Below are positions 14,756-17,670 of a stretch of 36,416 nt of DNA, one piece after another (positions within the stretch are counted from its first letter, which is position 1; every line of letters begins with the position of its first letter). Made by a program: the position numbers and the translations under genes. This DNA comes from a virus (taxonomy: Duplodnaviria > Heunggongvirae > Uroviricota > Caudoviricetes): IMG/VR virus record IMGVR_UViG_2648501873_000005. One strand, 5' to 3'. The notes beneath the pieces are model-generated. The model was not told the origin of the DNA and ran no database searches. It saw nothing but the letters and a program-made list of their open reading frames with translations.

Positions 14756-14977
14756 ATGGCAAAGATCCGATATCTGCAGGGCACGCATGATGCCCGGGCC
14801 GGGGATATCCGTGATGTGGCACAGCCGTGTGCGGAGGTGCTGGTTCGCCTGGGAAAGGCGGAGTACATCACGGTGCGACGTCCGGCAGGTCAGAAAAAGA
14901 AACGTGATGCGGAGCATGGCGAATGTGGAACCTTTTACGGCGAACCCGAAAAAACCAGAAATCAGGACGTGACGTAA
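14756..14977 (+). CDS. Small hypothetical ORF (73 aa), doubtful
   Basis: ORF between capsid and portal with no clear ribosome-binding site; overlaps the putative portal start. Confidence 0.2.
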   Translation: MAKIRYLQGTHDARAGDIRDVAQPCAEVLVRLGKAEYITVRRPAGQKKKRDAEHGECGTFYGEPEKTRNQDVT

Positions 14978-17670
14978 GAGAGGCGGGCTGGACCAGCCTG
15001 TTTCAGGCGGGGGCTGAGCCCTTTTCCGGCGCCTGGCAGCAGGGCGTGAAAGCCGATCCTGAAGCCGTCCTCTCCTTTCATGCGGTGTTTGCATGTATTT
15101 CGCTGATATCCCAGGATATCGCCAAAATGCGGCTGCGTCTTATGCAGACGGATGCGCATGGGATACGCAGGGAAACGCGCCGGGGGGATATTGCCCGCCT
15201 CTGTCGTCGTCCCAACGCCCAGCAGAACCGCATCCAGTTTTTTGAACTGTGGCTGAACGCCAAACTGCGTCATGGCAATACGGTGGTGCTGAAAATCCGT
15301 AATGCCCGGGGGCAGATCAAAGAACTGCGTATTCTGGACTGGAGCCGGGTTGAACCTCTGGTGGCGGATGACGGCGAGGTGTTCTACCGCATCACGCCGG
15401 ACCGGAACTGCGGGATCACGGAGGCGGTGACGGTGCCTGCCCGGGAAGTGATCCACGACCGGTTTAACTGTTTTTTTCATCCGCTTATAGGATTGCCGCC
15501 GGTGTATGCCGCCGGGCTGGCGGCCACGCAGGGGCATCATATTCAGGAAAATTCGACGTCTTTTTTCAGAAATGGCGGCAGGCCGTCCGGGGTGATTGAG
15601 ATCCCCGGCAGTATTACGGAAGAAAATGCGAAAAAACTGAAGAGCAACTGGGACAGCGGGTATACAGGCGAAAATGCGGGGAAAACGGCCATTCTGAGCA
15701 ACGGGGCAAAATACAACCCCACGACGTTTTCACCTGTGGATGCGCAGACGGTGGAACAACTGAAGATGACCGCTGAAATTGTCTGTTCGGTGTTCCGTGT
15801 CCCGGCCTACAAGATTGGCGTGGGACAACCGCCTTCCAGTGACAACGTGGAGGCGCTGGAGCAGCAGTATTATTCCCAGTGCCTGCAGACGCTGATTGAG
15901 TCCATTGAACTGTTACTGGATGAGGCGCTGGAAACGGGGGAAAACGAGAGTACAGAATTTGATGTCACCACGCTGCTGAGAATGGACAGTGAGCGGCGCA
16001 TGAAAACGCTGGGGGATGCGGTGAAAAATACGCTTCTCACGCCCAATGAGGCCCGTAAACGGGAGAACCTGCCGCCCCTGGCCGGCGGTGATGCACTGTA
16101 TCTTCAGCAGCAGAACTACAGTCTGGAGGCGCTGTCCCGTCGTGATGCCCGTGAGGATCCGTTCGCGTCTGCCGGGAAAACAGTTTCATCACAGCTGCCT
16201 GACGGCGCATCTGACGGTAATAAGGCAATCAGTGAAACAGAGCATGATGCGGTGAAAGCGATGTTCAGGGGGGATACTGAGAAAATGACGGAACGGGAAC
16301 TGTCCATTATTCGTGCACTGGGAGAAGAATTCTCCACAGTGCTGGCGGATTTACAGCGCACATTTGAGGGGAAGATGGCCTCGCAGGCACAAGCGTTTGA
16401 AGAGAAACTGACTTCCCTGTCGGCGGTATTACAGAAGCATGTGACGGTGGATGAGGTGCGTCCGGTTCTGCAGGCGATGGTGGATGACGCTGTGGGGGCC
16501 ATTCCGGTACCGCGTGATGGTCGTGATTATGATCCGGATGTACTGCAGCAGGCGGTGAATGATGCGGTCGCAAATATTCCGCAGCCGGCGGACGGTAAAA
16601 GTCTCACCCCGGATGATGTGCGTCCGATGCTTGAACAGATGGTGAAGGAGGCTGTAAGCCATATCCCTGTTCCGCGTGATGGTCGTGACTACGATCCGGA
16701 AGTACTGCAGAAGGCGGTGAATGATGCGGTCGCAAATATTCCGCAGCCGGCGGACGGTAAAAGTCTCACCCCGGATGATGTGCGTCCGATGCTTGAACAG
16801 ATGGTGAAGGAGGCTGTAAGCCATATCCCTGTTCCGCGTGATGGTCGTGACTACGATCCGGAAGTACTGCAGAAGGCGGTGAATGATGCGGTCGCAAATA
16901 TTCCGCAGCCGGCGGACGGTAAAAGTCTCACCCCGGATGATGTGCGTCCGATGCTTGAACAGATGGTGAAGGAGGCTGTAAGCCATATCCCTGTTCCGCG
17001 CGACGGTCGTGACTATGATCCCGATGTTCTGCAGAAGGCGGTGAATGATGCGGTCGCAAATATTCCGCAGCCGGCAGACGGTAAAAGTCTCACCCCGGAT
17101 GATGTGCGTCCGATGCTTGAACAGATGGTGAAGGAGGCGGTAAGCCATATTCATGTTCCGCGTGATGGTCGTGACTACGATCCGGATGTTCTGCAGAAGG
17201 CGGTTCTGGATGCGGTGAGTGCCCTGCCGGCTCCGCAGGACGGGCGTGATGCCACGGCTCTGGAAATACTCCCCGCCATTGACGATCAAAAATCCTTTCC
17301 CCGGGGCACGTATGCCACACACCAGGGCGGACTCTGGCGGGCGTATGAAAAAACGCACGGGATGCGGGGATGGGAATGCCTGGTTGACGGGGTGGCGGAT
17401 ATTGACGTCAGCATGACGGGTGAGCGGTTGTTCTCTGTGGTGGTCCGGCAGAGCAGTGGCCAGCGTACGGAAAAAACATTTTCCCTGCCGGTGATGCTCT
17501 ACCGCGGTGTGTTCAGAGCCGGTGAAACCTACCACCCCGGCGATACGGTGACGTGGGGGGGCTCGCTGTGGCACTGCAACAGTATGACCGAAGATAAACC
17601 CGGAGAAGCTCATTCATCAGCCTGGACCCTGGCTGCAAAACGTGGGCGGGATGCAGGAGGCGGAAAATGA
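14923..17670 (+). CDS. Portal protein (HK97-like N-terminal ~420 aa) with a ~500-aa C-terminal extension containing tandem repeats
   Basis: N-terminal region fits the portal pattern (AVFACISLISQDIAKMRLRL..). The C-terminal part contains about 5 near-identical 54-aa repeats (PVPRDGRDYDPEVLQKAVNDAVANIPQPADGKSLTPDDVRPMLEQMVKEAVSHI) and a Cys/Trp-containing terminal domain. Confidence 0.7.
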   Translation: MWNLLRRTRKNQKSGRDVREAGWTSLFQAGAEPFSGAWQQGVKADPEAVLSFHAVFACISLISQDIAKMRLRLMQTDAHGIRRETRRGDIARLCRRPNAQQNRIQFFELWLNAKLRHGNTVVLKIRNARGQIKELRILDWSRVEPLVADDGEVFYRITPDRNCGITEAVTVPAREVIHDRFNCFFHPLIGLPPVYAAGLAATQGHHIQENSTSFFRNGGRPSGVIEIPGSITEENAKKLKSNWDSGYTGENAGKTAILSNGAKYNPTTFSPVDAQTVEQLKMTAEIVCSVFRVPAYKIGVGQPPSSDNVEALEQQYYSQCLQTLIESIELLLDEALETGENESTEFDVTTLLRMDSERRMKTLGDAVKNTLLTPNEARKRENLPPLAGGDALYLQQQNYSLEALSRRDAREDPFASAGKTVSSQLPDGASDGNKAISETEHDAVKAMFRGDTEKMTERELSIIRALGEEFSTVLADLQRTFEGKMASQAQAFEEKLTSLSAVLQKHVTVDEVRPVLQAMVDDAVGAIPVPRDGRDYDPDVLQQAVNDAVANIPQPADGKSLTPDDVRPMLEQMVKEAVSHIPVPRDGRDYDPEVLQKAVNDAVANIPQPADGKSLTPDDVRPMLEQMVKEAVSHIPVPRDGRDYDPEVLQKAVNDAVANIPQPADGKSLTPDDVRPMLEQMVKEAVSHIPVPRDGRDYDPDVLQKAVNDAVANIPQPADGKSLTPDDVRPMLEQMVKEAVSHIHVPRDGRDYDPDVLQKAVLDAVSALPAPQDGRDATALEILPAIDDQKSFPRGTYATHQGGLWRAYEKTHGMRGWECLVDGVADIDVSMTGERLFSVVVRQSSGQRTEKTFSLPVMLYRGVFRAGETYHPGDTVTWGGSLWHCNSMTEDKPGEAHSSAWTLAAKRGRDAGGGK
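16450..17260 (+). repeat. In-frame 162-bp tandem repeat array (about 5 copies) inside the portal gene
   Basis: GGATGATGTGCGTCCGATGCTTGAACAGATGGTG recurs at 16612, 16774, 16936 and 17098 with period 162 bp. Internal copies are nearly identical; the first and last units are diverged. Confidence 0.9.

Follow-up and report, generated by a model that had tools for sequence, protein, structure and literature searches.

The stretch of DNA analysed here, referred to as the window, comprises the 36,416 nucleotides of a tailed virus (Caudoviricetes) deposited in IMG/VR as IMGVR_UViG_2648501873_000005. The subject of this work is one open reading frame (ORF) within it, located at 14923..17670 on the plus strand, which starts with ATG and encodes 915 amino acids (aa). 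An initial annotation, based on the letters alone, had described the product as an HK97-type portal protein carrying a long C-terminal extension of tandem repeats and a terminal domain. ORF calling and Tandem Repeats Finder returned the same layout, and the assignment of the N-terminal part was upheld by Pfam, NCBIfam and alignments to solved portals. Codons 1-454 (14923..16284, +) encode a complete HK97-family portal. Pfam Phage_portal (PF04860) matched aa 54-382 with an E value of 6.4e-81 and 272.5 bits (cut-off 39.1) over model positions 2-321 of 321, and NCBIfam TIGR01537 (portal_HK97) scored 349.4 bits (cut-off 112.05) over positions 2-343 of 343, meaning that the whole family model was matched above the curated cut-off. 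The solved portals 9lbn (gp1, 431 aa) and 8cez (HK97, 424 aa) from the Protein Data Bank (PDB) aligned over their whole length to aa 42-420 only, and about the second half of the ORF therefore exceeds a normal portal. The same portal is encoded as a stand-alone protein of 454 aa in phage BP-4795, in the Sakai prophage Sp10 and in 43 related loci. Codons 455-915 and the stop (16285..17670, +) encode a second moiety of 461 aa (50.4 kDa, pI 4.8), which is designated X in the following. X belongs to a large protein family. Its members usually have a gene of their own, located between those for the portal and the head-tail adaptor.

The repeats lie entirely within X. Tandem Repeats Finder reported one strong array at 16510-17204 (period 162 bp, 4.3 copies, 96% matches, score 1285), which is far beyond chance, and a separate repeat search gave four copies with a spacing of 162 nt. 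The in-register units start at 16510, 16672, 16834 and 16996 and have pairwise DNA identities of 93.8-100%: no difference separates units 2 and 3 (100% identity across 324 bp), while unit 1 (97.5%) and unit 4 (93.8%) differ slightly from them. These four near-identical 162-bp (54-aa) units occupy 16510..17157 (+) and represent the recently amplified, homogenised part of the X rod. The flanking units at 16348 (before) and 17158 (after) reach just 44-53% identity and are degenerate copies. The 162-bp array of the initial annotation is thus real, with four near-identical units plus degenerate flanks in place of the "about 5 copies" that it had counted. Each 54-aa unit consists of two half-units, each with a PxPxDG loop and a short amphipathic helix, at spacings of 25 and 29 residues. 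The array is followed by a terminal domain of approximately 125-150 aa.

The border between the two moieties holds two features, identified from the sequence and from the alignment to BP-4795. A homopolymer of six G (16268..16273, +) lies 11 nt upstream of the ATG of X, at its Shine-Dalgarno (SD)-like element, and an ATGA overlap follows at 16285..16288 (+). Here, the ATG (16285-16287) is the start of X, in the window read in frame as Met455, and the TGA (16286-16288) is the portal stop of the allele with five G. In BP-4795, the corresponding region measures 2747 nt and carries two annotated ORFs of 454 and 461 aa which overlap by 4 nt. In a base-by-base alignment with colinear flanks, the single difference that matters was found in the G tract, where the window reads TTC AGG GGG GAT (six G) and BP-4795 has five G. 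With five G (G5), translation of the portal ends four codons past the tract, at the TGA in AAAATGA, and the second ORF begins at the overlapping ATG. With six G (G6), this ATG is read in frame, and both ORFs merge into one. The fused protein retains portal residues 1-450, continues with four changed residues and then comprises the whole X product, with the junction peptide ..AMFRGDTEKMTER.. at the transition. As expected of a frameshift fusion at a homopolymer, the two states are separated by a single-base indel, both parental ORFs are intact when unfused, and the same residues are read when fused. The SD-like tract and the ATG of X are still present in the fused allele, and free X may therefore still be made from it. 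In addition, an RNA hairpin was predicted just inside X (~16309-16350), approximately 21 nt beyond the ATGA; the folding energy of the 116-nt stretch is -35.4 kcal/mol (z = -2.9), a stability reached by 1 of 200 shuffled sequences.

For a comparison with close relatives, 80 IMG/VR loci were fetched at a portal identity of at least 96%, and the 79 scorable loci, which include the window and two phages, divide into 43 with G5 (split) and 36 with G6 (fused). Every G5 locus encodes a portal of 454 aa and, where the contig allows, an X that is intact to the same C-terminus, with 299, 353, 407, 461 or 569 aa. The fused ORFs of 807, 861, 915 or 1023 aa equal 454 aa plus the same ladder, apart from minor variants without the last two residues. 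A census of tract-length patterns in all of IMG/VR counted G5 on 59 contigs, G6 on 38, and G4 or G7 on none. Tracts of four or seven G would also split the genes, with a shortened portal tail and no stop/start overlap, and the lack of such tracts hints at a role for the native portal C-terminus or for the coupling of the two genes. The locus was also found in 93 phage records (lambdoid and Shiga toxin (Stx)-converting E. coli phages) with match lengths of 2748, 2586 and 2424 nt, and fused examples among deposited phage genomes include 2851 and vB_EcoS_phi330. A total of 1,246 out of 5,426 complete E. coli genomes contain the locus, with a fused series of 2748/2586/2424/2262 nt and a split series of 2747/2585/2423 nt; judged by match length, approximately 36 of 60 evenly sampled rows were fused and 23 split. 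Genomes of enterohaemorrhagic E. coli (EHEC) carry several copies of the module, with a median of five matching places per genome. The finished genome of O157 Sakai holds both states: Sp10 is G5, with ECs_1974 (454 aa) and ECs_1975 (407 aa), whereas Sp9 and Sp12 are G6 (859 aa), as is Sp6 with a damaged X end (833 aa), and the junctions are otherwise identical to that of Sp10. Since Sp6, Sp9, Sp12 and complete genomes carry G6, the fused state is a real, common allele and not a miscall, and its origin from a sequencing error was rejected on these grounds.

Within the same set of relatives, the length ladder of X corresponds to 1, 2, 3, 4 or 6 repeat units, and the number of units differs between loci that share identical upstream sequence (e.g., 3 vs 6). 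Unit identity averages 95.1% within one array and 91.3% between arrays, and 5 of 33 distinct arrays have fully identical units. Hence, the array expands and contracts with homogenisation, which bears out the recent expansion or concerted evolution put forward in the initial annotation. Its warning that the array endangers assembly was equally justified: the contig stops before the stop codon of X in 17 of the 79 loci, mostly within a few hundred bases of the array start, and the public databases hold thousands of fragments named 'phage portal protein, partial'. The four units of the window agree with the complete genome of DEC4E (2748-nt locus, 99.6% identity) and with an independent 915-aa locus in IMG/VR (L023), and four-unit arrays are present in BP-4795 and other relatives, too. 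Because units 2 and 3 are identical over 324 bp, certainty about the unit count needs long reads. The protein itself is already known in the databases. The exact 915-aa sequence is WP_032269849.1 ('phage portal protein, HK97 family'), recorded on one 224-kb contig only, its 90% cluster has 6,387 members, mostly fragments, and the long form is modelled by PHROG 2271.

The distribution of X beyond E. coli was followed with an exhaustive, profile-free search using aa 421-915. It returned 5,540 cluster representatives (50% identity) at E<=1e-3 and 627 at E<=1e-30, mostly of 240-600 aa. Among the best 150 of the 5,540 representatives, on which the family was scored, the same terminal domain ends 146 proteins, and a portal is present in only 2. 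A set of 80 distant loci was collected via the conserved C-terminal domain from one-genome-per-species contigs, and both genes were found in 73 of them. Here, X is a separate ORF in 71 loci and is fused to the portal only in L109 (1243 aa) and L161 (614 aa). The genes recur in the order terS - terL - protease/major capsid protein (MCP) - portal (445-527 aa) - X (167-562 aa) - gp6-like adaptor - closure protein, and this order spans Gamma-, Beta- and Alphaproteobacteria as well as a metagenome-assembled genome (MAG) of Clostridia. The portal stop and the X start overlap or abut in various ways (ATGA, ATGnnTGA, TGATG, 14-19-nt overlaps), with X in one reading frame relative to the portal in 50 loci and in the other in 21. 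X is preceded, at a distance of approximately 8-14 nt, by a purine-rich element of SD type (AGAGGA, AAGGAG, GAGGGAG), and the G run of E. coli occupies the exact position of AGAGGA in enterobacterial relatives. As distant loci keep X separate with its own SD-like element and in either frame, the arrangement as two coupled genes is ancestral and general. For close relatives, a neighbour-joining tree built from 1338 nt upstream of the tract is likewise rooted in G5, with the state largely tracking lineage, and the split state is ancestral in both comparisons. The view of the initial annotation, a portal that natively owns its C-terminal extension, is not supported, given that X is separate in 71 of 73 distant and 43 of 79 close loci and that one G makes the difference. 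Its proviso that the region might turn out to be a separate gene after correction of a sequencing error holds in one respect: the gene was separate ancestrally, but the sixth G is no error and is common in finished genomes.

Homologs contain between 0 and 20 PxPxxG units, spaced alternately by 25 and by 29 residues, and the two spacings together form the 54-aa super-unit. The repeats as such are therefore old in this family, and what is recent is the near-identity seen among the units in E. coli. Several homologs deviate in their details. Many alphaproteobacterial-type proteins (P0003, P0004, P0019, P0027, P0040) have an extra small beta-hairpin-like insert (..IDxxGxLxxxxxxGxxxxxGxVxGxD..) before the last repeat and a conserved motif at the extreme C-terminus, P-[IV]-R-[LF]-[RK]; the E. 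coli protein has neither. In a Sphingobium MAG (L132), portal and X are approximately 3.8 kb apart, and in Symbiopectobacterium (L159), an X remnant of 54 aa lies beside the adaptor, near a different portal. Both look like rearranged or decayed versions of the module. The database names of X vary as well. It is annotated as 'hypothetical protein' in Salmonella FSL SP-016, Pseudomonas PAJU2, EBPR siphovirus 3 and a Rhizobium phage, as 'phage portal protein' in E. coli, and in one cluster member as 'plasmid partitioning protein ParA'. Stand-alone homologs of Klebsiella, Raoultella, Salmonella and Enterobacter (P0216-P0249, P0284, P0285) bear the NCBI name 'phage gp6-like head-tail connector protein', yet only the domain resembling a carbohydrate-binding module (CBM) is present in them. 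The name of the Klebsiella homologs pointed to possible fusions of X and adaptor; as no X-adaptor fusion occurs among the 80 distant loci, it was treated as a mislabel. The connector, portal and ParA names are likely propagated mislabels.

The architecture of X was modelled with AlphaFold2. A long N-terminal alpha-helix (X residues 3-50; 16291..16434, +) was predicted with a block-wise confidence (predicted local distance difference test, pLDDT) of about 73-89. It is followed by an acidic rod (16447..17220, +), which the monomer model, at low confidence, builds from ten short helices of alternately 17 and 13 residues with 12-residue PxPxDG loops between them. With a pLDDT of 30-60 in the whole-X model, the rod is too uncertain to tell a coiled-coil fibre from a solenoid, and the fold search was performed without it. 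The C-terminal domain (X residues 343-451; 17311..17637, +), modelled alone, reached a mean pLDDT of 85.6 with a core above 90 and is all beta, matching the small beta fold of CBM5/12 modules. In this model, the tip resembles CBM5/12 modules, including those on phage fibres, and it may be glycan-binding. The net charge of the rod is about -25, whereas the tip is slightly basic. For the Pfam family CBM_5_12 (PF02839, gathering cut-off 26.2), the X homolog P0005 scored above the cut-off with 29.8 bits, whereas P0002 (24.7 bits), P0036 (21.9 bits) and the window protein (18.9 bits) scored below it, and precomputed matches to it exist for many enterobacterial homologs. Apart from this borderline CBM hit, no Pfam or NCBIfam model in the libraries used matched X in the window protein and diverse homologs. 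Precomputed matches to PF28083.1 were noted on X-containing proteins (P0277-P0381, P0280, P0289), one of them a stand-alone X, and this entry may represent a newly added Pfam family that covers a portion of X. Searches of the PDB by sequence, with the single sequence and with the family profile, found no relative of known structure for the part of the ORF beyond the portal. The X profile gave weak matches of the rod to the de novo designed helical-repeat proteins 8cwy, 8cws and 5cwb (E about 1e-3), which probably reflect composition and periodicity, though the rod may be a helical solenoid rather than a coiled coil. The window protein ends in ..KRGRDAGGGK without a G-X-Y run of the collagen-like type (PF01391), whereas some homologs end in ..KKGRDGKDGKNGRD.. 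or carry PF01391.

Selection on the two moieties was compared among close relatives by the ratio of nonsynonymous to synonymous polymorphism (pN/pS). The portal showed values of 0.11-0.14, and X, in both allelic states, 0.17-0.23 in the C-terminal domain and 0.32-0.43 in the N-terminal part. X is under purifying selection in the split as well as the fused state. The literature searched on this portal, on BP-4795, PAJU2 and 2851, on virion proteomics of long-tailed Stx phages and on portal frameshifts contains no description of X, the extent of its family or the G-tract dimorphism. Nor does this literature account for the nature of X or for the poly-G origin of the fusion.

Taken together, the ORF is a portal fused to a neighbouring head or fibre protein. 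We consider it probable that it represents a heritable in-frame fusion of an HK97-family portal and the adjacent gene X, in which X has a role at the portal vertex and the fusion is tolerated. The comparisons above show the one-base difference, the two allelic states, the ancestry of the split state, the ladder of unit numbers, the purifying selection on X and the resemblance of its tip to a known fold. In the ancestral state, the ATG of X overlaps the portal stop (ATGA) and is served by its own purine-rich ribosome-binding element approximately 11 nt upstream. In E. coli prophages, this element has become the homopolymer G5, and slippage there created the fusion: with one G added (G6, 16268-16273), the reading frame of the portal changes four codons ahead of the stop, and translation runs on into X. 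The product attached in this way would be a conserved structural-module protein in which an acidic rod joins a long helix at the N-terminus to a beta domain at the C-terminus. Its unit number presumably changes via unequal recombination or slippage, with homogenisation inside each array, and the four near-identical 162-bp units are the youngest part of the rod. Judged from the alleles compared here, the fusion is probably tolerated rather than lethal.

Where X resides in the virion is less certain. Its coupling to the portal gene, its fixed position between portal and adaptor, and at least three portal fusion lineages, taken as independent (E. coli, L109/P0098 and L161), suggest that X is a low-copy protein at the portal vertex. 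We infer that it acts there as a fibre or rod with a glycan-binding tip. In P22 and HK97, the portal C-terminus is part of the crown and faces the capsid interior. By analogy, the fused allele would place twelve X moieties inside the head, unless they are cleaved off, as the portal C-terminus to which they are attached points inward; the initial annotation had likewise suggested a capsid-internal domain. The added mass of twelve X is estimated at ~600 kDa, which is small compared to the packaged DNA. Our tentative preference, held at slightly less than even confidence, is an external neck or portal-vertex fibre which the fusion has trapped; an internal, crown-attached rod is possible but somewhat doubtful, and something other than these two is unlikely. 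A further proposal is that X is a portal-vertex fibre and that the single-G indel in its own ribosome-binding site toggles between free X and X tied to twelve crown subunits inside the head. In a related variant, X would be an internal rod of varying length which exits the capsid together with the DNA and whose tip binds peptidoglycan or glycans. We regard such a toggle as quite improbable. If it were true, E. coli lambdoid and Stx prophages would have two heritable virion morphs, differing in adsorption, stability or ejection, which interconvert and recombine within one cell.

Several observations weigh against a tolerated fusion with a portal-vertex role. The traits of X that are typical of external fibres (fibre-like rod, CBM-like tip, acidic charge, collagen-like tails in some homologs) fit poorly with the capsid interior that the fusion forces on it, and the match of the window to PF02839 is, at 18.9 bits, below the gathering cut-off. 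The upstream tree implies at least six changes of state, an upper-end reading that assumes neither recombination nor homopolymer miscalls, either of which could inflate it; nearly all G6 junctions share one haplotype, and one or two origins of the fusion, followed by its spread through recombination, may therefore be enough. Broken X alleles occur more often in fused than in split loci (8 of 30 vs 2 of 34; the samples are not independent), and the fusion may thus be harmful. In addition, Asadulghani et al. (2009) scored portal and head as '+' in Sp10 and as 'D' in Sp6, Sp9 and Sp12 (PMC2669165), a scoring which coincides exactly with split and fused. The last two points are what one would expect if the fusion were an inactivating lesion that prevents a proper head, through the 461 extra residues on every portal subunit or through a trapped X, with fused prophages persisting on the normal portal and X of co-resident prophages. 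The several module copies per EHEC genome could supply both, and fused genes are seldom seen outside E. coli (2 of 73 distant loci, 2 of the 150 best representatives). In the same study, Sp10 was scored as intact for morphogenesis and its DNA was packaged and transferred to K-12, Sp9 DNA was packaged, and Sp6 was transferred despite its defects; complementation between prophages was invoked, including for the packaging of Sp9 DNA (PMC2669165). Against a lesion stands the frequency of the fused allele of approximately 40-60% of loci (36/79; 38/97; ~36/60 of the sampled complete genomes), and its occurrence at 98-99% identity in unrelated backgrounds, including ST131-type strains, suggests horizontal spread. 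X remains constrained in fused alleles (pN/pS of 0.17 in the C-terminal domain), other tract lengths are missing, unlike in random decay, and two deposited phages are fused. One of these, phage 2851, reportedly lysogenises K-12. On balance, we consider a lesion rather unlikely.

The remaining alternatives concern the extension and the tract themselves. A genuine long portal with a native, ancestral extension, as implied by the RefSeq labelling of split forms, could draw on PHROG 2271 'portal protein', whose 859 positions span the whole ORF, on the Prokaryotic Genome Annotation Pipeline (PGAP), which calls the fused form intact and the split form 'frameshifted', and on the size of the fused-protein cluster. 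It is contradicted by the distribution of X: 71 of 73 distant loci and 148 of 150 representatives encode X separately, in two frames, with an SD-like element and a start codon that belong to X. The root state in E. coli is G5, the split X is intact and under selection, and solved family portals end where the portal moiety ends, all of which leave a native extension scarcely credible. A regulatory role of the G tract, either in phase variation or in programmed slippage (ribosomal or transcriptional) by which the proportions of portal, free X and portal-X would be set within a population or during one infection, is suggested by a homopolymer exactly at the junction with only its two 'meaningful' lengths in IMG/VR. 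Moreover, two G5 loci (L033, L040) share identical 1338-nt upstream haplotypes with G6 loci, state changes recur in the tree, and in G5 the sequence A AAA TGA would permit a -1 P-site slip into the X frame ahead of the hairpin. However, runs of five or six G are generally short for efficient phase variation, the state follows lineage instead of varying freely, and the mixed-state haplotypes could be homopolymer miscalls or recombinants. A programmed -1 frameshift at A AAA TGA, with the G tract as a stimulatory SD element as in dnaX, was rejected as a feature of the family, since neither a slippery heptamer nor the frame relation is conserved, the overlaps vary among relatives, and the hairpin begins ~21 nt past the putative slip site, outside the usual 5-9 nt. 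A switch is therefore very improbable. Finally, the window could be an artefact, with a miscalled homopolymer (true G5) and/or an array collapsed or expanded in short-read assembly. The exact protein occurs on a single contig, the identical units 2 and 3 cannot be counted by short reads, and many assemblies break at X or the array. The same G6 junction is nevertheless found in finished Sakai and in complete genomes, including DEC4E, and both L023 and the four-unit arrays elsewhere support the length, which makes an artefact most unlikely. The fusion of two adjacent head-module genes remains the reading we prefer.

The neighbours of the ORF complete the head module. Downstream, the gp6-like head-tail adaptor gene (17667..17993, +; Pfam Phage_connect_1, E 1.5e-7) is a conserved neighbour, and its ATG (17667) overlaps the stop of X (17668-17670) as ATGA. 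The conserved upstream neighbour (12774..14711, +) is a prohead protease-MCP fusion of 645 aa with Pfam Peptidase_S78 at aa 48-152 and Phage_capsid at aa 386-635. In Burkholderiales and some Alphaproteobacteria, a protease of about 200 aa and a capsid protein of about 470-500 aa are encoded by separate adjacent ORFs (the loci cited for the protease/capsid arrangement are L110, L112-L115, L117, L118, L120-L127, L142, L147 and L158). The head module thus has a second fused/split polymorphism, as the two are fused in the window and separate elsewhere. A 73-aa ORF at 14756-14977, which overlaps the portal start by 55 nt, has no Pfam hit but corresponds to the RefSeq conserved hypothetical protein WP_001063099.1, present in every related prophage examined. 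Two more repeat regions were noted in the window. The first, at 31420-31872 with periods of 189, 42 and 21 bp and 68-90% matches, lies in a side-tail-fibre ORF (30904-33276) with an N-terminal Pfam phage_tail_N domain and repeats rich in A/S/K/T/Q/E/N. The second is a 38-bp tandem repeat at 5696-5787 (2.4 copies, 96% matches) that runs from the 3' end of an esterase gene (4183-5757; Pfam DUF1737 and SASA sialate O-acetylesterase) into the beginning of the following ORF.

These results matter for how such prophages are annotated and counted. The RefSeq pipeline labels the ancestral two-gene state as a frameshifted portal pseudogene and names the stand-alone X 'phage portal protein'. The RefSeq labels, which treat the split state as frameshifted, and the 2009 Sakai study, which treats the fused state as defective, exclude each other, and how many EHEC/Stx prophages count as 'defective' hinges on which of the two holds. 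Furthermore, the array is a systematic short-read breakpoint in prophages of Shiga toxin-producing E. coli, and copy numbers are untrustworthy without long reads. X itself is a very widespread family across Proteobacteria with a fixed place in a common head module, and that it has been fused repeatedly to the portal C-terminus strongly hints at a role at the portal vertex.

Compared to known systems, residues 1-454 are a full member of the HK97-family portals (HK97 gp3, PDB 8cez and 8fql; 9lbn gp1), and the split length of 454 aa is normal. The fused allele departs from them in its last four portal residues, altered from ILKK or ILRK to DTEK, and in the 461 attached residues of X; the gene order is also unusual here, with the protease-MCP gene before the portal. 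The X tip differs from the CBM5/12 modules of Serratia ChiB, S. griseus ChiC and Erwinia EGZ in that it belongs to a phage head-module protein and not to a glycoside hydrolase, with the window scoring below the Pfam cut-off. The P22 portal has a C-terminal barrel, in which long helices carry the crown further into the capsid, and the fused ORF likewise has a long, largely helical C-terminal addition which must project from the crown into the capsid. However, the barrel is a native part of the portal, whereas X is a separate gene in most relatives, has a variable repeat number and ends in a beta domain. T4 fibritin (wac) is similar to the predicted X in its N-terminal attachment helix, its many short helical segments with loops and its small C-terminal beta domain, and wac adjoins neck genes as the X gene adjoins the neck (adaptor) gene. 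This likeness comes from a low-confidence monomer model of the rod, and an external whisker would not be expected to be fused to an inward-facing portal C-terminus. The genes of the minor head proteins SPP1 gp7 and Mu gpF follow the portal gene, and their products associate with the portal inside the capsid. X is a repeat rod with a CBM-like tip and not a MuF domain, and no Pfam hit to the MuF family was obtained in the window protein or 10 diverse X homologs (E<=0.01 or 0.001). Still, X shares with these proteins the position directly downstream of, and coupled to, the portal gene as well as a variable C-terminal part, and its occasional fusion to the portal suggests a physical association, as for those portal partners.

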